Virus record (IMG/VR): IMGVR_UViG_3300029721_000142
Source: a virus
Taxonomy: Duplodnaviria > Heunggongvirae > Uroviricota > Caudoviricetes
Length of the DNA stretch: 12,070 nucleotides
Strand: one strand, 5' to 3'
Shown piece by piece: positions 1 to 10,460 of the stretch (its first letter is position 1; each line of letters opens with the position of its first letter). The position numbers were made by a program, and so were the translations under genes. The notes below the pieces were generated by a model. That model searched no databases and was not told the DNA's origin. It saw only the letters and a program-made list of their open reading frames with translations.

Positions 1-1230
1 ATGAGCAGAGCACTTAACAAACTGAGCGATACACAGCTGAGGAAAATCAACGGCACACCCGCCCAAAAAACAGCCTTTCTTAATGACGGTGGAAACCTGA
101 GCGTCAGGCATTCAACCAGTGGCCTTTTAACCTGGTATTTCACTTACAGGGCCGGAACGGGAAGGGGGGCACCACCGGAACGCATTAAGCTGGGAAATTA
201 TCCTGATCTGAGCCTGAAATCAGCCAGGGAAAAAGCCGCCCAGTGTCGCGCATGGCTGGCAGAGGGGAAAAATCCACGTCATGAAATGAATTACACCGTA
301 CAGGAAGCGTTAAAGCCGGTAACGGTTGGCGATGCGCTCACCTACTGGCTTGAGTCGTACGCAAAGGAAAACCGCGTGGATTATGCCGCCCTGAAAAAGC
401 GCCTTAATAATCACGTAATACAGCACATTGGTGCTATGCCGCTGGATAAATGCGAGCTACGGCACTGGCTGGCCTGTTTTGACCAGGTGGCAAAGCGAAC
501 GCCTGTTACTGCCGGATTCTTGCTACAGACGTGCAAACAGGCGCTTAAGTTCTGCCGGAGGCGGCGCTATGCAATCAGCAACGTTCTTGATGATATGAGT
601 GTGGCGGACGTTGGGAAAAAACCGGATATAAGCGAGCGCGTCTTAAGCACCAAAGAACTTGGCGAATTATTGCAGGCACTGGACAAAAAAATATTTTCCC
701 CTTACTACGTCGCACTAATCCGCCTCCTGATTGTTTTCGGATGCCGGACGGTAGAACTGAGGTTATCGGAGATCAGCGAGTGGGATTTTACCGAAATGCT
801 CTGGACCGTGCCGAAAGAACACAGCAAAACGAAGGTGGCAATATTCCGGCCCATACCGGAAGCAATACTGCCGTTCGTCACGCAGCTGGTGGAGCAGAAC
901 AGGCACACGGGCTTATTGCTGGGGGAAGTGAAACAGGAAACAAGCGTGTCGCAGTACGGCAGATTAGCGCACAGGAGGCTAAAACACCCTCACTGGTCAC
1001 TGCATGACATCCGGCGCACCTTTACAACCATGCTGAACGATTTAGGCGTTGATCCGCATGTCGTGGAGCAGCTTACAGGTCATCAGATGCCAGGGATGCA
1101 ACGAGTCTATAACCATTCCCGTTATCTGGATGCGAAACGTGACGCGCTGGATATGTGGACGGAGCGGTTAGGGATACTGGCGGGAACACATGAAAACGTA
1201 ACCACATTGCCAATAGCCAGAGAAATATAA
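1..1230 (+). CDS. int: Tyrosine recombinase / integrase, P4-type
   Basis: 409-aa ORF. C-terminal catalytic region carries the tyrosine-recombinase signature (LHDIRRTF ... LTGHQMPGMQRVYNHSRY, i.e. His-x-x-Arg then the Tyr nucleophile region). N-terminal ~80 aa (LSVRHSTSGLLTWYFTYR) resemble the arm-binding domain of P4-family integrases. Position at the island edge fits. Family assignment from recalled signatures. Confidence 0.9.
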   Translation: MSRALNKLSDTQLRKINGTPAQKTAFLNDGGNLSVRHSTSGLLTWYFTYRAGTGRGAPPERIKLGNYPDLSLKSAREKAAQCRAWLAEGKNPRHEMNYTVQEALKPVTVGDALTYWLESYAKENRVDYAALKKRLNNHVIQHIGAMPLDKCELRHWLACFDQVAKRTPVTAGFLLQTCKQALKFCRRRRYAISNVLDDMSVADVGKKPDISERVLSTKELGELLQALDKKIFSPYYVALIRLLIVFGCRTVELRLSEISEWDFTEMLWTVPKEHSKTKVAIFRPIPEAILPFVTQLVEQNRHTGLLLGEVKQETSVSQYGRLAHRRLKHPHWSLHDIRRTFTTMLNDLGVDPHVVEQLTGHQMPGMQRVYNHSRYLDAKRDALDMWTERLGILAGTHENVTTLPIAREI

Positions 1231-1595: not shown

Positions 1596-1784
1596 GTGTT
1601 AAGCACAGATCGCTTTATACGTGAAAAAGAATGTCAGCAACTTACAGGCCTGAGCCGCTCATGTCGGTACCGCCTGGAAAAAGCCGGACAATTCCCATCA
1701 CGGCGTAAGCTGGGCGGTCGTTCCGTTGGCTGGTCTTTATCCGAAGTTCTGGCATGGAAGGACAGCTGCGAGGCAGTTCACTAA
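1596..1784 (+). CDS. alpA: AlpA-family phage transcriptional regulator (small HTH, excisionase-like)
   Basis: 62-aa ORF with GTG start at 1596 and RBS aaaggggga upstream. The sequence LTGLSRSCRYRLEKAGQFPSRRKLGGRSVGWSLSEVLAWK matches the AlpA family pattern (ITGLSRST.YRL...G.FP....LG.R.V.W...E...W). Position immediately after int is typical of P4-like elements and Gram-negative PICIs. Confidence 0.85.
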   Translation: MLSTDRFIREKECQQLTGLSRSCRYRLEKAGQFPSRRKLGGRSVGWSLSEVLAWKDSCEAVH

Positions 1785-1836: not shown

Positions 1837-2212
1837 ATGAATACTGGATATTCTCCCGAACAAGGGCGGGGCTTCGTTCGTCCTGAAAAACAGAATCTGC
1901 AAAATTTTGCCGAAATTATTCCGGTTATTTCCGGCCTTACTGGCGGGAGTGAAACCAATATTGCTAACGCCAGAGCGTTGCAGATGTTTGATGATAAAAA
2001 GGGAGTAAATTTAACTTACACCCCTGACGGCAATCAGAATATGAGCATTATCTCTGAGTCAGGTTTCTACAAACTAATAAAAACAAAAAGCGCCCCGTTG
2101 CCGGAGCGCCTTTGTGAACAATTAACCTACTGCGCAAAAAATGAATCTGAGCAGTGGGATTATATCAACCATGTGGAGAAGCGCCACAATTGCCGAATAA
2201 CGGGCAAAACAA
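1837..2212 (+). pseudogene. Protein-like 5' part of a 423-codon ORF (1837..3108); probable 3'-truncated gene remnant, possibly with a Bro-N/antirepressor-like fragment
   Basis: The first ~125 codons have normal protein composition (ISESGFYKLIKTKSAPLPERL is faintly Bro-N-like). From about 2212 to 2922 the same frame becomes Cys/Ser/Arg-rich nonsense while the opposite strand holds two well-formed small genes and a terminator. The frame reopens as a plausible small gene only at 2923. No in-frame stop exists before 3108. Confidence 0.3.
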
Positions 2213-2233
2213 AGGCCACCCGCTACGGTGGCC
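2201..2233 (-). terminator. Rho-independent terminator for the minus-strand two-gene operon
   Basis: Perfect 7-bp stem GGCCACC / GGTGGCC (2214-2220 and 2227-2233) with a 6-nt loop. On the minus strand it is followed by TTTGTTTTG. It lies about 80 nt downstream of the 62-aa gene stop. Confidence 0.5.
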
Positions 2234-2312
2234 CCTCGACACAAGCTACACGTTATCCCCAACGCATGAGCATTGCCAACAATGCCACATTTGCGGCTGG
2301 TGGGCAATGCAA

Positions 2313-2501
2313 TCAGTCTGGTTCAGTTCGTTGCCATACCTGCAATGAGCGCTTTTCCCTGTACTCTTTAAGGAATTGCTCAAGGGCAAAAGCACATGGC
2401 GCGAATCTTTCTGATTCATGCTCTATCTTTCTGCGCCGTCTTTTCCGTGCCGGTGATAATGTTTTGGTCAATTCTTTATCGGTCATTGTGTTGTCCTGCA
2501 T
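2313..2501 (-). CDS. Small basic protein (62 aa), downstream partner of the RHH gene; function unknown
   Basis: ORF in the same frame and operon as the RHH gene. Contains an arginine/lysine cluster (ARKRRRRK) followed by a predicted helical segment. An alternative start exists at the second Met (MTDKEL...). Confidence 0.45.
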   Translation of the reverse strand: MQDNTMTDKELTKTLSPARKRRRRKIEHESERFAPCAFALEQFLKEYREKRSLQVWQRTEPD

Positions 2502-2543
2502 AGCAATGCGCCGTAGTTCCTCACACCACGGCGCTGATGGTGA

Positions 2544-2723
2544 TTACTCTGGTTCTTTGGCCTTGCGCCGCTGGCGATATTCAACTTCTCGTTTTAATGC
2601 CGCAGTAACAAATTGCCCCGTACTTTCGCCAGGCATTTTTACCGCCTCAACATTGTTCATAACTTCATGCGGAACCCTTGCCGCAACGGTTTGTGATTTT
2701 GCGTTTACTGCTTTTGTCGCCAT
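2544..2723 (-). CDS. Ribbon-helix-helix (CopG/Arc/MetJ-like) DNA-binding protein, 59 aa; candidate repressor or antitoxin
   Basis: Hand-translated from the minus strand (below the ORF-track size cutoff): MATKAVNAKSQTVAARVPHEVMNNVEAVKMPGESTGQFVTAALKREVEYRQRRKAKEPE. Layout is beta strand (TVAARVP), helix A, loop, helix B, typical of RHH proteins. RBS GAGGGG sits 7 nt upstream of the ATG and an in-frame stop lies 5 codons upstream. It faces the operator cluster at 2773-2826. Confidence 0.65.
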   Translation of the reverse strand: MATKAVNAKSQTVAARVPHEVMNNVEAVKMPGESTGQFVTAALKREVEYRQRRKAKEPE

Positions 2724-2772
2724 GTGGTGTACCCCTCATAAAAAACAAATGCAGTATGCAGGAAAAAAAATA

Positions 2773-2826
2773 AGTGTTCAACACTTGACGTGTTTAACAC
2801 CTGGGTTTAAATTGGTGTTCAACACC
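2773..2826. promoter_or_regulatory. Operator cluster: three copies of the palindrome GTGTT(C/T)AACAC overlapping divergent promoters
   Basis: Seen directly: aGTGTTcAACACt (2773-2785), GTGTTtAACAC (2790-2800), gGTGTTcAACACc (2814-2826). A plus-strand promoter candidate is TTGACG (2785-2790), 17-nt spacer, TAAATT (2808-2813). A minus-strand promoter candidate is TTGAAC, 17-nt spacer, CATACT upstream of the RHH gene. Operators overlap the -35, spacer and +1 regions. Confidence 0.6.
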
Positions 2827-2922
2827 TTGTTGGCGCAAGGTGCAGAAACGACGAAACCCGGCAGTGCGCTAACACTAACCGGGCTTCTAACCACCAACGA
2901 TAGCGAAAGTATCGAGGTAGCT

Positions 2923-3108
2923 ATGAGAAATCATACCACACACCCGCAAGGGCGGGACTCGCACGACCTGAATAAATACATCTGGCGTTTTATCGCCCTG
3001 AGCACGGCACAACCGCGCGTGATTACCATCGAGGCCACCAGCGAACAGGAAGCGCGTCAGCAATCTCCTGATGGCTGCGTGATGGTATTCGCTGCCCGTA
3101 TTCGCTAG
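2923..3108 (+). CDS. Small protein (61 aa), tentatively Icd-like/Ash-region-like; first gene of the early operon
   Basis: ATG at 2923 with RBS GAGGT 5 nt upstream. Protein MRNHTTHPQGRDSHDLNKYIWRFIALSTAQPRVITIEATSEQEARQQSPDGCVMVFAARIR. The ATSE.EAR....FAAR motif resembles small Icd-like proteins found upstream of replication genes in P4-like prophages (from memory, unverified). Confidence 0.45.
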   Translation: MRNHTTHPQGRDSHDLNKYIWRFIALSTAQPRVITIEATSEQEARQQSPDGCVMVFAARIR

Positions 3109-3794: not shown

Positions 3795-4094
3795 ATGAAA
3801 CTTAAATATTCTGGCTTAACTGCCAGTGGCAACACTCACCCTAAATTTACGCGCGGTGATATTTACCGCGACCAGTACGGCGGCACGGTAATGATTAAGG
3901 GCGTGGAAGAACGGCGCGTAACCTACCGCCGTGAAGGTTACGAATATGATTGCGTGATGCCTGTTTATCAGTTCCGGCGTGATTTTTCTCTGGTACAGAC
4001 CGCGCCGCATAACGTGCCCACCAGCAACGCCAGGGCACGGGCAAACATCCAGAAGCTGAAAACCATGATTAACGGATTCAGGGGCAAGAAATGA
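3795..4094 (+). CDS. Hypothetical protein (99 aa)
   Basis: ORF whose stop overlaps the rep start (ATGA at 4091-4094), implying translational coupling. No family recognised with confidence. Confidence 0.55.
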   Translation: MKLKYSGLTASGNTHPKFTRGDIYRDQYGGTVMIKGVEERRVTYRREGYEYDCVMPVYQFRRDFSLVQTAPHNVPTSNARARANIQKLKTMINGFRGKK

Positions 4095-5491
4095 AAAGCG
4101 CACCGAACTTAAAAAAACAGCCTTACGACAAGATGACCGAAGTCATTATTTTTGCGGGTAGTGATGCCTGGGCACATGCGAAACAGTGGCAGGAACAGGA
4201 CGGGCGACTGGCTGGCGATAATGTGCCTCCCGTTGTGCTGGCTGATGATCAACTGGATGAACTGGCAGACCTGAGAATCATCGACGAGGGGCGCTATTGT
4301 GTCCGGCTGTACAAGGCAGGCCACATCAGGCCATCAAATATTAATGCCATTGCGCACAAGCTGGCGGCGGCGGGTGTAACTGATGCGAATTATTACCCCG
4401 AAGGGATGCACAGCCATATGCGGGAGAACTGGCGCGAATACCTGGAACGGGTGCGCGGGAAAGAGCCGGTGGAAGAAAAAAACCACCAGCGAAAAACCAC
4501 GCTACCGATGAGCGTTGGATCTACCGGATACGACACGCAACTGGATTACGTGGTTAAGGGGATTATTCCGGCGGTATCGCTATGCAGCATATACGGGGCT
4601 AGCGGGTCCTATAAATCATTCCTTGCCGGATCGTGGGCGTGCCATGTTGCCACTGGTCGCCAGTGGGGAGGCCGCAGGGTTGCACATGGTGCGGTTCTCT
4701 ATGTGGTTGGTGAAGGCGGTATAGGTGTTCCGCGTCGTGTAAAAGCCTGGGAGGTTGTGCACGATGAGCAGGTGAAAAATCTGTATCTGGTAAACCGCCC
4801 CATCTTTCCGGCTGCCCCGCTTGATGTTGATGAAATGGTTATCGCTGCCCGTCAGGTGGAGCGGGAAACGGGTAAACCTGTACGCATGATTATTCTGGAT
4901 ACGCTGGCGCGTTGCTTTGGTGGGAATGATGAAAATGATTCCCGTGATATGGGGGCGTTTATCCGTGGTTGTGACGAACTGAAACGACGCACAGGGGCCA
5001 CGGTGCTGGTGGTTCACCATTCCGGCAAGGATGAGACGAAAGGCGCGCGCGGTTCCAGTGCATTTCGTGCTTCGCTGGATGCTGAATACCGGATACGCAG
5101 GGAGGACGCAGGAAGCGAAGCGCTGGTTATCTCATGCACCAAAATGAAGGACGCGGAGGAACTCAAAGAAGCCGCATATGACTTACGCGTGGTGGAGCTT
5201 TTTACCGACGCTGACGGTGAATTAATCACGTCGCTGGTGGTGGTGGATGATCCGCGCCCTCCTGTTGAACTGGAGCGCATCGAGGAGGCAGGGAACAAGA
5301 CGGAAAACCATACCGCGCTATGGGGGTGCATCCGTTCACGCACACAGAACGGCGACAAGTGCACGATCCCGCTGTTACGTGATGACATGAAAAAGCTGGG
5401 GTATGAAATGAAAAACTTCCGGCGCTGGCTGTACAAGCTGGAAAAAGATGGGGTTATTCGTATCGATGGGGATGATGTAGCGCCGCTATAA
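4091..5491 (+). CDS. Replication protein: RecA-fold RepA/DnaB-like ATPase (AAA_25 type) with an N-terminal TOPRIM-like region
   Basis: 466 aa. P-loop IYGASGSYKSFLAG, Walker B MIILDTLARC, and the RepA-type motif VLVVHHSGKDETKGARGSSAFRASLD. N-terminal EVIIFAGSDAWAHA ... PVVLADDQLDE is suggestive of a TOPRIM-like domain (inference). Followed immediately by an iteron array. Confidence 0.8.
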   Translation: MKSAPNLKKQPYDKMTEVIIFAGSDAWAHAKQWQEQDGRLAGDNVPPVVLADDQLDELADLRIIDEGRYCVRLYKAGHIRPSNINAIAHKLAAAGVTDANYYPEGMHSHMRENWREYLERVRGKEPVEEKNHQRKTTLPMSVGSTGYDTQLDYVVKGIIPAVSLCSIYGASGSYKSFLAGSWACHVATGRQWGGRRVAHGAVLYVVGEGGIGVPRRVKAWEVVHDEQVKNLYLVNRPIFPAAPLDVDEMVIAARQVERETGKPVRMIILDTLARCFGGNDENDSRDMGAFIRGCDELKRRTGATVLVVHHSGKDETKGARGSSAFRASLDAEYRIRREDAGSEALVISCTKMKDAEELKEAAYDLRVVELFTDADGELITSLVVVDDPRPPVELERIEEAGNKTENHTALWGCIRSRTQNGDKCTIPLLRDDMKKLGYEMKNFRRWLYKLEKDGVIRIDGDDVAPL

Positions 5492-5682
5492 AAGTGAGGA
5501 GCAAAAGCGAGGGGGATAGAAAGAGGGCCAAAATTAGCCCGCTCTCCCTCACTTTTCGACCTGTATACATCCTCAAAAGTGAGGGGTAAAAAAATACTTA
5601 TGAAACACACACATAGAAAAACCGAAAATCCCAACTGCGACGAAGTGAGACGCTTGAAAAAGTGAGGCGAAAAAGTGAGAGG
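5491..5682. repeat. Putative origin of replication: iteron array of AAGTGAG(G/A) repeats around an AT-rich core
   Basis: Seen directly: AAAGTGAGG (5491-5499), variant AAAGCGAGGGG (5504-5514), inverted CCCTCACTTTT (5546-5556), AAAAGTGAGGGG (5575-5586), GAAGTGAGA (5642-5650), AAAAAGTGAGG (5657-5667), AAAAGTGAGAGG (5671-5682). An AT-rich stretch lies at 5587-5630. Iterons directly downstream of rep are the usual ori arrangement in PICI/SaPI-type elements. Confidence 0.55.
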
Positions 5683-5691
5683 TTGCGAGAA

Positions 5692-5943
5692 ATGACCCAA
5701 AAACGCAGAGACAGAACAGAGCCAAAATATAAAGCGTTAGACATGACTGAGCACACCTTAAAGGTGGCAATCAGAACGATAGACCGCCACACGCGGGAAG
5801 GATACGCGAAGGAACATCCCGACCTGATAAGCGCATTCATGACCACGGCGGCGGCAAACTTTGCCACGCTGACAGAACGGGAGATTGCCGAAGCGGAACA
5901 GGTAACAACCATCAACGTTAAAACCGGAGAGGTGGAATCATGA
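5692..5943 (+). CDS. Hypothetical protein (83 aa)
   Basis: ATG at 5692 with RBS GAGAGG upstream. The ORF-track start at 5662 lies inside the iterons. The stop overlaps the ssb start (ATGA). Confidence 0.5.
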   Translation: MTQKRRDRTEPKYKALDMTEHTLKVAIRTIDRHTREGYAKEHPDLISAFMTTAAANFATLTEREIAEAEQVTTINVKTGEVES

Positions 5944-6350
5944 CAGCACAGATAGCCGCTTACGGGCGGCTGGTGGACGACCCGCAGGTAAAACAGACCA
6001 GCAAGGGCACACCGATGACGCTGGCGCGTATGGCGGTCCCCCTTCCGTGCAGCCAGGCAGATGACGGAACGGCGACGATGTGGTTATCCGTCCTGGCATT
6101 TGGCAGACAGGCCGAAGCACTGGAAAGGCACCGCAAGGGTGAACTCCTGAGCGTGGCGGGTAACATGCAGATCAGCCAGTGGACTGGGCAGAACGGAGAA
6201 ACGCGGCAGGGTTATCAGGTTATTGCAGACAGCGTAATCAGTGCCCGTGCGGCACGTCCTGGCGGGAACAGACGCAAAACCACAGGCACACAGGGTAATC
6301 AGCTACCAGCGGGAGGCGATGACCCTTACGGTGATGATATTCCGTTCTGA
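5940..6350 (+). CDS. ssb: Single-stranded DNA-binding protein (phage-type SSB)
   Basis: 136 aa. OB-fold-like core (IAAYGRLVDDPQVKQTSKG ... WLSVLAFGRQAE ... GELLSVAGNMQISQWTGQNGETRQGYQVIADSV), a Gly/Gln-rich linker, and the hallmark acidic C-terminal tail DDIPF. Confidence 0.9.
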   Translation: MTAQIAAYGRLVDDPQVKQTSKGTPMTLARMAVPLPCSQADDGTATMWLSVLAFGRQAEALERHRKGELLSVAGNMQISQWTGQNGETRQGYQVIADSVISARAARPGGNRRKTTGTQGNQLPAGGDDPYGDDIPF

Positions 6351-6863: not shown

Positions 6864-7070
6864 ATGGCTGAAGAGAAAAAAGGCGGTGTTTCGGTGTACA
6901 TAAGCCCCGACATCGTGAAGGCGCTCAAGGAACGCCACCAGCAGAACGTAAAAGCAGGCATTGCGGCAGGACTTGATCCGCTGGCGATGGTTGAGCCGTC
7001 AACAGGCTGGCAGGTACGCGCCTATTTACGCGCGGCGCTGGGTATGAATCAGGTTCACGGGGGTGAATAA
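6864..7070 (+). CDS. Hypothetical protein (68 aa), first gene of the late/capsid operon
   Basis: ORF with a good RBS. Its stop overlaps the capsid gene start (TAATG), implying translational coupling. Function unknown; a scaffold or size-determination role is speculation. Confidence 0.6.
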   Translation: MAEEKKGGVSVYISPDIVKALKERHQQNVKAGIAAGLDPLAMVEPSTGWQVRAYLRAALGMNQVHGGE

Positions 7071-8125
7071 TGACAGTAAAAGCAATGGCACTTAACACTA
7101 ACCAGCTTTTTGCGTACCTGAATCGCGGGGATATTGCGGAATTTAAATTCAGTCCGCTGTTTACCACGCTGTTTTTCCCGAACGTGGCGACATTCAGCAC
7201 GCAAAACATCATGCTGGATACCCTGGACATTGAAGAAGTCACCATGTCGGCGTTTTGTTCGCCTATGGTGGGTAGCCAGGTTCAGCGCGATAAAGGGTAC
7301 GAAACCAGCACGATTAAACCTGGCTACATGAAGCCAAAGCACGAAATCGATCCAACGAAAACCATCATGCGCATGGCTGGAGAAGATCCGGCACAGCTTA
7401 ACGACCCTACCTATCGCCGTATGCGCCTGATTACTGGCAATATGCGCCGCCAGATAAACGCCATAAAAGCGCGCGTGGAATGGCTGGCGGTAAATGCGGT
7501 AACGACCGGAAAAAACATCATTGAAGGCGAAGGCATAGAGCGCTATGAAATCGACTGGAAGATACCGGAAAAAAACATCATAGAGCAGGCCGACGGGAAA
7601 AAATGGTCAGAGCAGGACAAAGAAACCCACGATCCAATCTATGATATCGAACTATACGCCGATCAGGCTGGTTGCCCCGCAAACGTCATGATTATGGGCG
7701 CTGAGGTATGGCGAACGTTACGCAGCTTTAAAAAATTCCGTGAGCTGTACGATCTTTCCCGTGGTTCAGAGTCCGCCGCAGAGCTGGCCTGTAAAAACCT
7801 GGGCGAAGTGGTGAGCTTTAAAGGCTATCTGGGCGATATTGCCCTTATCGTCTATTCCGGCAAATACACTGACAGCGACGGCACAGAAAAATATTTCCTT
7901 GAGCCTGATTTGCTTGTCCTGGGCAACACCAACAATAAAGGGCTGGTGGCCTATGGTGCGATTATGGATCAGGACGCAGTAAGAACGGGCGCAACGCAAA
8001 ACATGTTTTACCCGAAAAACTGGATTGAGGACGGCGATCCGGCGATTGAGTACGTGCAGACGCACAGCGCACCGCAGCCGGTTCCGGCAGATATTCGCAA
8101 ATTTGTTACCGTCAAAATTGGTTAA
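7070..8125 (+). CDS. Major capsid protein, lambda gpE-like (HK97 fold)
   Basis: 351 aa. Blocks of recalled similarity to lambda gpE (341 aa): EFKFSPLFTTLFF vs KFKFDPLFLRLFF; KPGYMKPKHEIDP vs TPGYVKPKHEVNP; DPTYRRMRLITGNMR vs DPAYRRRRIIMQNMR; KWSEQDKETHDPIYDIELYA vs EWSKRDKSTYDPTDDIEAYA; YPKNWIEDGDPAIEY vs YPKNWVTTGDPAREF. Similar length. Confidence 0.9.
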   Translation: MTVKAMALNTNQLFAYLNRGDIAEFKFSPLFTTLFFPNVATFSTQNIMLDTLDIEEVTMSAFCSPMVGSQVQRDKGYETSTIKPGYMKPKHEIDPTKTIMRMAGEDPAQLNDPTYRRMRLITGNMRRQINAIKARVEWLAVNAVTTGKNIIEGEGIERYEIDWKIPEKNIIEQADGKKWSEQDKETHDPIYDIELYADQAGCPANVMIMGAEVWRTLRSFKKFRELYDLSRGSESAAELACKNLGEVVSFKGYLGDIALIVYSGKYTDSDGTEKYFLEPDLLVLGNTNNKGLVAYGAIMDQDAVRTGATQNMFYPKNWIEDGDPAIEYVQTHSAPQPVPADIRKFVTVKIG

Positions 8126-8136
8126 CGGGGGATTCT

Positions 8137-8472
8137 ATGGACACTCCATACATTGAGTTATTTGCAGGCAGTCAGCAGGTCGCCACGACGCTGGTACATT
8201 TTGCCGCTGATGCTGGCGTTATTCAGGAATTTACCCCGCTGATGCTGGCGGACAATGGCGAGTTTAAGCCGTGGGATGGTAAGGAATCTGGCAAGGCTGT
8301 TTATCTGACCTCGTACCCTGTGGACACGTCAAAGCAGAAATCAGCACAGTGTTACAAGACGGGGATATTCAATATTGCCGCCGTTAACTGGCCTGAGAGC
8401 GTCGACACCGATGCGAAAAAATGCGCCGCCTTTGCGGGTTCCGGCGTATCCGTTCAGCCGCTGGCCCGATAA
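8137..8472 (+). CDS. Head decoration protein, lambda gpD-like
   Basis: 111 aa vs lambda gpD 110 aa. Recalled motif similarity: TPLMLADNGEFKPWDG vs TPLMLDTSSRKLVAWDG; YKTGIF vs YKSGTF; WPE; KKCAAFAGSGVS vs KKRTAFAGTAIS. Gene order is E-like then D-like, the reverse of lambda. Confidence 0.85.
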   Translation: MDTPYIELFAGSQQVATTLVHFAADAGVIQEFTPLMLADNGEFKPWDGKESGKAVYLTSYPVDTSKQKSAQCYKTGIFNIAAVNWPESVDTDAKKCAAFAGSGVSVQPLAR

Positions 8473-8484
8473 GCAGGGGGAACG

Positions 8485-8898
8485 ATGGCAACGAATGAAA
8501 GCATCATGACGCTACCGCTGGCGAGTAAATTTAAAGCCGAAGCGCGGGCAATGGCTGACAGAGGTTTATCAACCTATGAGGCCGTATATCAACTAAACAA
8601 ACTGGAAGAGCAGGACAAGCCGCGCGCTGATGCGATTATGGCGCTTCATGAGCATAAAGACTATCAGCCGCTGTTACGTGCAATGGCAAACGTGCCATGT
8701 ATTAGCGTCGATAATGCTCGTGAAATCCTGAACATGACCATAGAGCAGGAGCGCCCAAAGGTTGCACCAGAGCTTACCGCAGCCTTTGAAAACTTTATGG
8801 ACATGCACAGCCCGCAAGCCGTATCAGCTGGCATGGCATACGATGGCAGAAACCAGGGCGATGACGGCGACATCGATCGCATACTGAAAACCATCTGA
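8485..8898 (+). CDS. Hypothetical protein (137 aa) between the decoration gene and cos
   Basis: ORF with RBS cagggggaacg, followed by a terminator. No family recognised. It occupies the position that gpFI has after gene E in lambda (positional analogy only). Confidence 0.6.
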   Translation: MATNESIMTLPLASKFKAEARAMADRGLSTYEAVYQLNKLEEQDKPRADAIMALHEHKDYQPLLRAMANVPCISVDNAREILNMTIEQERPKVAPELTAAFENFMDMHSPQAVSAGMAYDGRNQGDDGDIDRILKTI

Positions 8899-8903
8899 GA
8901 CAA

Positions 8904-8926
8904 GGCCGGAGAAATCCGGCTTTTTT
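8904..8926 (+). terminator. Rho-independent terminator (GCCGGA gaaa TCCGGC + T6)
   Basis: Seen directly. The hairpin is nearly identical to the one at 6633-6654 (loop gaaa vs gcaa). Confidence 0.65.
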
Positions 8927-8927
8927 A

Positions 8928-8992
8928 CGGGTCCTTCCTGGAATTATGGCCCGTTACGGGGCGGCGACCTCGCGGGTTTTCGCTATTTATGA
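8928..8992 (+). other. cos-like element, left copy: cosQ-like flank + cosN (GGGCGGCGACCT, 8959-8970) + 22 bp of lambda-like left-end sequence; no R-site array
   Basis: Seen directly: cgggtccttcctggaattatggcccgttacg GGGCGGCGACCT cgcgggttttcgctatttatga. The 12-mer equals the phage lambda cohesive end, and the flanks resemble the lambda right end (ACGGGTCCTTTCCGG...GTTACG) and left end (CGCGGGTTTTCGCTATTTATGA), quoted from memory. It is an inverted duplicate (63/65) of 9676-9740. Confidence 0.75.
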
Positions 8993-9059
8993 CGTTTTTC
9001 CGTGAAGGTGACACCACCACCACTTGATTAATATTTAACCATGCAGTTAAGGTAACATT

Positions 9060-9494
9060 ATGATTGATAAAGCTTGTTTTGTAAGTCAGCAGGAAATAGC
9101 TGAACATTTCAAGGTTAACAGAACCACTATTCGCGCATGGACCAAACAGGGGATGCCGTATCTTAATGCGGATCGCGGAAAGTCTGGCGGTTATCACATC
9201 GGGCATACATTGCTTTGGTCTTCAGGTAAAAGCCGTCTTGAGGCCATCAGATATCACGTAGAAACCAGTGCGCTGGAAAAAATTATGTTTGCCAGGCTGC
9301 TTTCATCTGAGCGTGACGAGTACTCCAGTGAAGAAACAGAACATCGATTTGATGAAGGTTTGCAGATTTACGGCTATTCACCGGAAGATGTGAGCAAGGC
9401 ACGAAATAAAATGGCTGGCTTTCTGGCTGGGTGGCGTCATGCCGTAAGCGTTCGCCGTGCCAGCATGGAGCAATCAGCCGATACAGAACAGTAA
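9060..9494 (+). CDS. Small terminase subunit-like protein with a Nu1-type N-terminal DNA-binding domain; candidate packaging-specificity or redirection factor
   Basis: 144 aa. N-terminus MIDKACFVSQQEIAEHFKVNRTTIRAWTKQGMPYLNADRGKSGGYHI parallels lambda Nu1 MEVNKKQLADIFGASIRTIQNWQEQGMPVLRGGGKGNEVLY (winged HTH). The C-terminal half is unlike the Nu1 region that binds gpA. The gene sits between the two cos copies. Confidence 0.8.
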   Translation: MIDKACFVSQQEIAEHFKVNRTTIRAWTKQGMPYLNADRGKSGGYHIGHTLLWSSGKSRLEAIRYHVETSALEKIMFARLLSSERDEYSSEETEHRFDEGLQIYGYSPEDVSKARNKMAGFLAGWRHAVSVRRASMEQSADTEQ

Positions 9495-9562
9495 AGCCGA
9501 TAACTTGTTAATCACTCGCAGCAATGCATGTGATTTGTGCACACTTTCGGTTAACTGGTTCG

Positions 9563-9740
9563 ATGTCCGGTTTTAGTGTCTGTTTTTTGCGCATGTCCGG
9601 TTCATGGAAAGCATGTTTTTATATTTTTCATATGGTTAACTTGCAGAGAAACCGGACATGGATCCCGAAAAATTTTCATAAATAGTGAAAACGCGCGAGG
9701 TCGCCGCCCCGTAACGGGCCATAATTCCAGGAAGGACCCG
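9563..9740 (-). other. Complete cos-like site in inverted orientation: cosQ-like flank, cosN (9698-9709), three R-type repeats ATGTCCGGTT, AT-rich bend region
   Basis: Seen directly. cosN lies on the minus strand as aggtcgccgccc. Repeat copies are at 9563-9572 and 9593-9602 (direct) and 9650-9659 (inverted, nearest cosN), with an AT-rich segment at 9611-9633 between them. This mirrors the lambda cosN-R3-I1-R2-R1 layout but with a different repeat sequence (lambda R elements contain CGTTTCC). Confidence 0.75.
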
Positions 9741-9773
9741 ACGACACCAGACTATCAGAACGATGGGGGCACA

Positions 9774-10055
9774 ATGACAGAAGCCGAAATACTGCGATTA
9801 ATCCGCCGCGTTGCCGGAATCAGCCAGCAGGCCGACGAACAGACCACGCAGCCGGACAGCGTGACCGCCGAAAATTATGTTCGTGTGGTTGCTGAGGTGA
9901 TTCGCCGTAATGGTATCCAGCTTAATGATGTGGATATGCGCAACATACGGATCCGCGTTCTTGAAATGCTGGCCTACAATCGCCGCGTGGCACTGTATCG
10001 GGAAACGGAGAAAATTACGTACCACTGGAAGAAGCCGGAGCGGTTGCGGCGGTAA
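9774..10055 (+). CDS. Hypothetical protein (93 aa), last island gene
   Basis: ATG at 9774 with RBS gatggggg 5 nt upstream. The ORF-track start at 9576 would read through the cos repeat and is rejected. No family recognised. Confidence 0.55.
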   Translation: MTEAEILRLIRRVAGISQQADEQTTQPDSVTAENYVRVVAEVIRRNGIQLNDVDMRNIRIRVLEMLAYNRRVALYRETEKITYHWKKPERLRR

Positions 10056-10057
10056 CT

Positions 10058-10217
10058 GGTTGATATTTTCGAAATTCGCCAGCGGCGAACATCGGGGAAA
10101 CCAGCCTAACCCGTTGATATTTTCGGGAACCTCAAATTGAAGAGGTCGGAAACATAACCCGTCATATTCTGGATGCTGATAATTACCACGCAGCCCATTA
10201 AGGCCTAACCCGTTGAT
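10058..10217. repeat. Degenerate direct repeats at the island/chromosome junction (GGTTGATATTTTCG; CCTAACCCGTTGATATTTTCGGG; TAACCCGTCATATT; GCCTAACCCGTTGAT)
   Basis: Seen directly at 10058-10071, 10105-10127, 10155-10168 and 10203-10217. Candidate right attachment-site arm sites; the left att is outside the window so a core direct repeat cannot be confirmed. Confidence 0.4.
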
Positions 10218-10460
10218 TCTTCCACAATCCCCCATTGGGGGAGGCTGGGCGGCCTGCTGTGGGCTTTTCCACCATTGGTGGAAAGGCGCACATCTGGATC
10301 ATCATTACGGTGATCAAGGGTATGTAAAACCCACCAGCCTGATTGACATTTAACCGGAAAAAAGCCAGGTAGCCCCGTTATGGGGATCCCCATATCGACA
10401 TTAACGCCCCTCATGAATTGGCGCGCTTCCCCCTGGAAAGATGACCCGCCTGTATATTTC

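Follow-up and report, generated by a model that had tools for sequence, protein, structure and literature searches.

The window analysed here, a stretch of 12,070 nt from a virus of the Caudoviricetes (IMG/VR record IMGVR_UViG_3300029721_000142), contains an open reading frame whose product joins a DNA-binding domain resembling that of the lambda small terminase Nu1 to a C-terminal half of another kind, which raises the question of what such a protein does and on which DNA it acts. The preliminary description of this locus had seen in it a factor that redirects the helper terminase to the cos site of an island in the manner of the Rpp proteins, either by replacing the helper TerS or by forming a heterocomplex with it, and had placed its target in the repeats of ATGTCCGGTT.

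The first part of the answer is the identity of the protein. At 144 of 144 residues it is identical to C_RS07025/WP_000565609.1 of CFT073, which is c1503, the RppA protein of the island EcCICFT073, a name given by Fillol-Salom et al. (2019, Mol Cell 75:1020, PMC6739421). Residues 1-50 and the C-terminal tail, as far as they are legible in Fig S1 of that paper, agree with the window; the length of RppA is given as 144 residues in the primary paper, as found here, and as 135 residues in a review (PMC9026076). Among the solved structures the best match is RppC (PDB 6HLK/6HN7), with E=5e-31 over residues 2-125 (phmmer against the PDB), and all features of the Rpp family that can be checked in a sequence are present in the window protein. 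Close homologues were found solely in the Enterobacterales. The 2-kb region around rppA is 98.1% identical to CFT073 at 1,386,998-1,388,999, and in nine other complete E. coli genomes this region (window 8400-10400) is present with 100% identity. We conclude that the ORF is almost certainly RppA of an EcCICFT073-type phage-inducible chromosomal island (PICI) located next to phoQ, and that it works by the published mechanism; no evidence contradicting this explanation turned up in the analysis. Since the protein is RppA, the feature is already known: the two cos sites were reported in 2018, and 2019 saw the publication of its identity, the structure of a homologue and the mechanism. The features of the window are listed in Table 1.

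Table 1. Position of the island genes, the two cos sites and their elements in the 12,070-nt window.
Feature	Position	Strand	Remarks
Integrase gene	1-1230		
alpA-type HTH gene	1596-1784		
Replication gene	4091-5491		AAA_25-type, 466 aa
ssb	5940-6350		
Major capsid gene, lambda gpE-like	7070-8125		PF03864, E=2e-52; upstream of rppA
Decoration gene, gpD-like	8137-8472		PF02924; upstream of rppA
cosQ-like element of cos1, TTTACGGGTCCTTCC	8924-8938	+	Matches the lambda-type cosQ and EcCICFT073 cos1 (Fig S1A, PMC6739421)
Inverted repeat I1, left arm	8928-9005		
cosN of cos1, GGGCGGCGACCT	8959-8970	+	12 nt; exact lambda left cohesive end; within I1
cosB of cos1, RppA-responsive region (published swap)	9000-9059	+	Island-specific
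Conserved core of cosB1, ACACCACCACCACTTGATTAATATTTAAC	9011-9039	+	bp 53-81 from cosN nt 1
rppA	9060-9494	+	Real ORF; ATG start, 144-aa product
Phage-type cosB of cos2 with three R-like repeats	9563-9659	-	Downstream of rppA
R1'	9563-9572	+	cos2 bp 138-147
R2', AACCGGACAT	9593-9602	+	cos2 bp 108-117
R3', ATGTCCGGTT	9650-9659	-	cos2 bp 51-60
Inverted repeat I1, right arm	9663-9740		
cosN of cos2, GGGCGGCGACCT on the minus strand	9698-9709	-	EcCICFT073 cos2 (Fig S1A, PMC6739421)
cosQ-like element of cos2, CGGGTCCTTCC on the minus strand	9730-9740	-	In the right arm of I1

The context of rppA is that of a PICI: the island carries int, an alpA-type HTH gene, rep and ssb, together with a cos whose cosQ and cosN are phage-like and whose cosB is not. 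The decoration gene is followed, in this order, by a 137-aa ORF, cos1, rppA, cos2 and a 93-aa ORF. The 137-aa ORF is closed by a terminator-like hairpin with a T run (GGCCGGAGAAATCCGGCTTTTTT, 8903-8926), which directly adjoins the cosQ of cos1. A 423-aa ORF at 1837-3108 is probably not a gene, its CFT073 equivalent being annotated as a set of small genes lying on the two strands (among them YlcI/YnfO-family and Icd-like genes). The capsid and decoration genes, which are c1499 and c1500 in the literature, where no phenotype was found for them, are conserved without portal, protease or scaffold genes, and the module composed of the capsid gene, the decoration gene, an ORF of about 130 aa and rpp recurs in islands of E. 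coli, Klebsiella and Salmonella (L007, L010 and L013).

An RppB-type island (L007, 2960-3165) displays a cos1(+)-rpp-cos2(-) layout with cohesive ends that are not those of lambda (GGGTACGTGTAC for cos1 and GGGTAGCCATAC for cos2). Its cos1 keeps the ACACCACCACCACTTGATTAATATTTAA motif and its cos2 possesses different R-like inverted repeats (TTCCGGTTTTT / AAAAACCGGAA). No phage or prophage carrying the cosB of this cos2 was found, the sole phage match being 80% over 70 nt, and its best partial genome match was another PICI. The rpp gene of a Salmonella island (L013; GCA_023563885.1, 2076-5429) and the ORF ahead of it overlap, and downstream come a hok-like gene and, after it, head-tail genes resembling FI, FII and Z of lambda; a search for cosN with two mismatches allowed found no cos in the 5.4 kb examined. 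The locus may represent an island embedded in the late operon of a prophage, as is the helper-embedded satellite of PMC10111431.

The domain split attributed to the protein was confirmed for both of its halves. Residues 8-71 of RppA align with residues 3-55 of lambda Nu1 at 30% identity (pairwise BLASTP, E=3e-6 as a single comparison), the alignment including TIRAWTKQGMPYL versus TIQNWQEQGMPVL, and this bears out the Nu1-like character that had been assigned to the N-terminal ~65 residues. The C-terminal half, which had been said to be unlike Nu1, indeed shows no similarity to it past residue 71, where the best BLASTP segment has E=61. The N-terminal likeness is weak in database searches: phmmer against the PDB gave E=0.13 for the Nu1 NMR structure 1J9I and E=0.08 for the TerS chain of 6HN7 (6HN7_B), with further weak matches to the small-terminase entries 7LW0, 7LWR and 7LXS, and the Pfam profile Phage_Nu1 (PF07471) scored 14.7 bits, for a cut-off of 30, over residues 8-40 (profile positions 3-36 of 164). 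With a Pfam score below the cut-off and no C-terminal alignment, RppA does not fall within the Nu1 family, and since the HTH matches of the Pfam scan were all sub-threshold, no family assignment can be taken from Pfam.

The protein is thus composed of a winged HTH (approximately residues 1-65) and of a helical C-terminal dimerisation half, which aligns with helices a4-a6 of RppC up to residue 125. Structure prediction, a check named in the preliminary description, gave a poor model. This AlphaFold model, built from a 16-sequence alignment, is of low confidence (mean pLDDT 54, pTM 0.44) and for this reason adds little; its helix pattern alone was used, with helices predicted at residues 10-17, 21-29, 48-62, 71-85, 91-103 and 108-143, and the wing is not resolved. 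This predicted pattern fits RppC, and a Foldseek search of the PDB with the weak model returned 6HLK as the only significant match.

The second part of the question concerns the DNA on which RppA acts. The start codon of its gene lies 102 bp past nt 1 of the upstream lambda-type cosN. When cos1 was compared with 50,697 phage records, the match was limited to cosQ, cosN and the first ~50 bp, and none of the records matched past about bp 52. The core of cosB1 is kept in CFT073, in the RppB-type island with a different cosN and, partly, in a Klebsiella island, and it overlaps the R3-PICI site proposed at bp 48-65 by Murialdo and Feiss. This conservation agrees with published work in which the cosB regions of the two cos sites were swapped and the RppA response was assigned to the one of cos1: when RppA was present, only plasmids with the cosB of cos1 were transferred (PMC6739421). 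The response of cosB1 was measured by in vivo transfer (PMC6739421), and the exact binding site is a proposed one. According to the primers used for the phi80 chimera, the transplanted cosB1 corresponds to window 9000-9139 and reaches into the 5' end of rppA (PMC6739421).

A second cos is revealed by I1, a 78-nt inverted repeat with 91% complementary arms, which correspond to the cosQ-cosN halves of cos1 and cos2, the latter on the minus strand. The site upstream of rppA is the published cos1 and the inverted downstream site is cos2 (Fig S1A, PMC6739421). In the 2018 work that reported the two cos sites of EcCICFT073, deletion of cos1 lowered lambda- and phi80-mediated transfer and deletion of cos2 raised transfer; cos2 is dispensable, and its loss is beneficial to lambda-mediated transfer (PMC6092414). 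The cosQ-cosN spacer of cos1 in the window (GGAATTATGGCC) is identical to that of cos2, and the spacer of CFT073 cos1 differs (GGCATATGGACC), which suggests that gene conversion may have occurred between the two inverted cos sites in the lineage of the window.

The repeats had been described as island-specific and as lying beside cosN. Three exact copies of ATGTCCGGTT are indeed found next to a cosN, about 0.69 matches being expected by chance per window even with one mismatch, but this cosN is the one of the inverted cos2 downstream of rppA. The three repeat cores (ATGTCCGG) are located at about bp 51, 110 and 140 of cos2, and R3' is inverted relative to R2' and R1'. It could be argued from these exact copies, which adjoin a cosN at distances like those of R3, R2 and R1, and from the TerS-like winged HTH of RppA, that RppA, alone or with TerS, binds the repeats as an island-specific cosB, a reading that we consider very improbable. 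Because the repeats belong to cos2 and the published RppA-dependent transfer requires the cosB of cos1, the cosB in which they sit is the one unresponsive to RppA. Their cos site can be deleted with a gain in lambda-mediated transfer, as described above, and Rpp islands with another cos2, or without cos2, keep the cosB1 motif. The same cosB, moreover, precedes terS in lambdoid phages and prophages in which no Rpp is encoded in the stretches examined. Both the island specificity of the repeats and their role as the RppA-responsive site were therefore not sustained. We infer that the ATGTCCGGTT repeats are not the target of RppA but represent the R sites of cos2, this cos having been taken over from a different class of lambdoid phage.

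This class was found by comparing cos2 with the 50,697 phage records, where 179 nt matched at 93.3% identity to the Escherichia phages PhiR12_1, PhiR12_2, PhiR12_2_star, PhiR12_4 and PhiR12_5. In PhiR12_1 the lysis genes lie on one side of the cos2-like sequence and nu1 on the other, with 49 bp separating its end from the start of nu1. From bp 46 to bp 148, cos2 is identical at 101 of 103 positions to PhiR12_1 and to an O104:H4 prophage, compared with 30/103 for cos1, 28/103 for lambda and 23/103 for phage 21; the similarity to the phages stops at bp 148, with 9 of 52 positions identical beyond this point. Six phage and prophage cos sites were compared: their three repeat cores are invariant, their spacers vary, and all of them lie 49 bp upstream of the same 169-aa TerS. 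As in a phage-type cosB, the repeats stand at fixed distances from cosN and are kept in phages directly upstream of terS, and it is on account of this shared cosB and its invariant cores that we take them for captured phage R-type sites, and not for an Rpp operator. Since Phage_Nu1 covers residues 49-150 only of the 169-aa TerS (WP_000235436 type), the N-terminal domain of this protein is not Nu1-like; the three cos2 repeats are putative sites for this cognate TerS. An assignment of the repeats to the R sites of phage 21 was also considered, the core being similar (ATGTC-GG), but was rejected because of the low identity of the cosB as a whole. In the phages, the third repeat is immediately followed by GACCGGTTTT, a possible fourth half-site in the orientation of R3', and the cos copy of the island ends just before it.

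The cos2-type cosB was detectable in 226 of 5,426 complete E. coli genomes. A combined query of part of the cosB and terS reached at least 80% coverage in 1,141 genomes, a count that measures the terS class and not the cosB, since terS and the spacer almost suffice for this coverage. Strain HM670 is a confirmed case in which a 100%-identical copy of window 8400-10400 and a prophage with this cosB are found in the same genome. A second site was present in 9 of 50 genomes among the matches listed, versus a background of ~3%, which makes the co-occurrence of the island and its cognate prophage suggestive; in the CFT073 genome, no prophage with a cos2-type cosB was found. The authors who described EcCICFT073 could identify no phage cosB in the island, and asked why some PICIs carry two cos sites. 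Our literature search found no paper linking the cosB of cos2 to a phage, and returned nothing relevant on the PhiR12 phages. The phage origin of this cosB, as it appears from the sequence comparisons, would therefore be the new element of the present analysis, and the repeats constitute the cosB of a real and common class of phages, and not an invention of the island.

Tentatively, and with slightly less than even confidence, we propose that cos2, far from being a degenerate duplicate, comprises all parts of a cos (cosQ, cosN and three R sites) and derives from a common class of lambdoid prophages whose TerS bears a DNA-binding domain unlike that of Nu1 at its N-terminus, and that the island would thus possess two specificities, inverted and on either side of rppA: cos1, used through RppA-TerS with helpers of the lambda, phi80 or 21 type, and cos2, used directly and without Rpp by a PhiR12-type terminase. 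A putative functional use of cos2, by this Rpp-independent route through PhiR12-type helpers, is suggested by the position of the same repeats in the phages, R3/R2/R1-like and 49 bp ahead of this TerS. If the proposal is right, EcCICFT073-type islands would hedge between adaptor-dependent and adaptor-independent hijacking, with a wider range of helpers, and the cos2 route would explain the acknowledged puzzle of the two cos sites. The same would be of consequence for PICIs engineered as delivery vehicles, the range of helpers open to them depending on the cos retained.

For RppA at cos1, the binding of TerS, the interference with phages and the specificity for cos1 are taken from the literature. 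The c1503 protein blocks lambda and phi80, deletion of rppA lowers the transfer of the island, and transfer is also poor with helper TerS mutants that have escaped Rpp; with RppA, the transfer of phage-cos plasmids goes down and that of cos1 plasmids goes up (PMC6739421). Rpp and the helper TerS form a heterocomplex, which blocks recognition of the phage cos and promotes packaging from cos1 of the island (PMC6739421). The winged HTH of RppC (residues 1-64) superposes on the DNA-binding domain of Nu1, helices a4-a6 form its dimerisation domain, and in the complex Rpp and one TerS monomer constitute a hybrid DNA-binding unit (PMC6739421).

Applied to the window, the proposed course of events would be as follows. 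Upon induction of the helper, the island would excise and replicate. The N-terminal winged HTH of RppA would mimic the DNA-binding domain of a helper small terminase of the lambda Nu1 type and, together with the C-terminal helices, would give rise to an Rpp-TerS heterodimer. Phage packaging would be blocked because this hybrid unit no longer recognises the R sites of the phage cosB, and the island-specific cosB located in the interval from cosN (8959) of cos1 to the start of rppA would be recognised by the same unit. The helper TerS would still be needed for packaging of the island, and according to a hypothesis of Murialdo and Feiss it supplies the TerL-binding C-terminus that Rpp is without. 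The helper TerL would then nick the lambda-identical cosN, and concatemers of the island would be packaged into full-size phage heads.

The Rpp-like redirection of the helper terminase to the island cos was thus read correctly from the start, because the protein is Rpp itself, as its full-length identity and the published genetics and structures attest. Between the two modes that had been left side by side, it is the heterocomplex that is supported by the published work; the replacement of TerS is not, as deletion of phi80 terS abolishes island transfer (PMC6092414). This result also bears on the idea of a self-sufficient island small terminase, which would replace the helper TerS and recruit TerL directly, as the SaPI TerS does. 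RppA has the TerS-like DNA-binding domain that such a protein would need, and its gene directly follows cos, as nu1 does; nevertheless, the requirement for helper terS and the poor transfer of the island by TerS mutants that escape Rpp, together with a sub-threshold Phage_Nu1 match confined to residues 8-40 and no similarity to the half of Nu1 that holds the proposed TerL-binding segment, leave this explanation with next to no probability. An ordinary MerR/AlpA-like HTH regulator or excisionase without a role in packaging deserves practically no credence, as the Pfam matches of this kind are all below their cut-offs, the identical protein has a demonstrated function in packaging and interference, and RppC has been crystallised in complex with TerS.

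The RppA explanation places the window among several known systems. With EcCICFT073 it shares an identical protein, the order cos1-rppA-cos2 next to phoQ, the same cosB1 and the same cos2 cosB; it differs in being a mosaic variant with a nearly identical packaging module, the CFT073 island encoding a 584-aa primase-family protein (its locus 4244-5998) where the window has the AAA_25-type protein of 466 aa. RppC is homologous over residues 2-125 and has the same arrangement of an N-terminal winged HTH and a helical C-terminal half. Its DNA-contacting residues R21, T22, R25, K29, K39 and K41 are present at the aligned positions of the window protein, and R30 is replaced by Q30. However, the identity is ~44%, RppC exceeds RppA in length by nine residues and there is little conservation of the residues involved in dimerisation; in a published two-hybrid assay the two proteins showed no cross-interaction (PMC6739421).

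The cosB of cos2 resembles those of lambda and phage 21 in having three short repeats at comparable distances past cosN, R3 being inverted versus R2. The R sites of phage 21 are annotated at bp 50, 107 and 150 (M81255), and the cos2 repeats are found at about 51, 108 and 138; the phage 21 sites also resemble the cos2 core, with CATGTCGG in R1 and R2 and CGTGTCGG in R3. Unlike in both of these phages, R1' of cos2 is oriented like R2', and the N-terminal domain of the TerS associated with the cos2-type cosB differs in kind from that of Nu1.

With lambda gpNu1, RppA has in common the winged HTH, aligned at 30% identity, and the location of the gene directly after cos. In contrast, the central and C-terminal part of Nu1, including its proposed gpA-binding end, is absent from RppA, which has no similarity to it past about residue 70, and according to published work the DNA specificity of gpNu1 differs from that of Rpp. 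The TerS(S) and Ppi proteins of the SaPIs reach a comparable outcome, since the helper's packaging is made to serve the island and that of the phage itself is blocked, but by means of two proteins, a complete TerS of their own that replaces the one of the phage and Ppi, which inhibits the phage TerS, whereas the single Rpp protein converts the phage TerS without replacing it.
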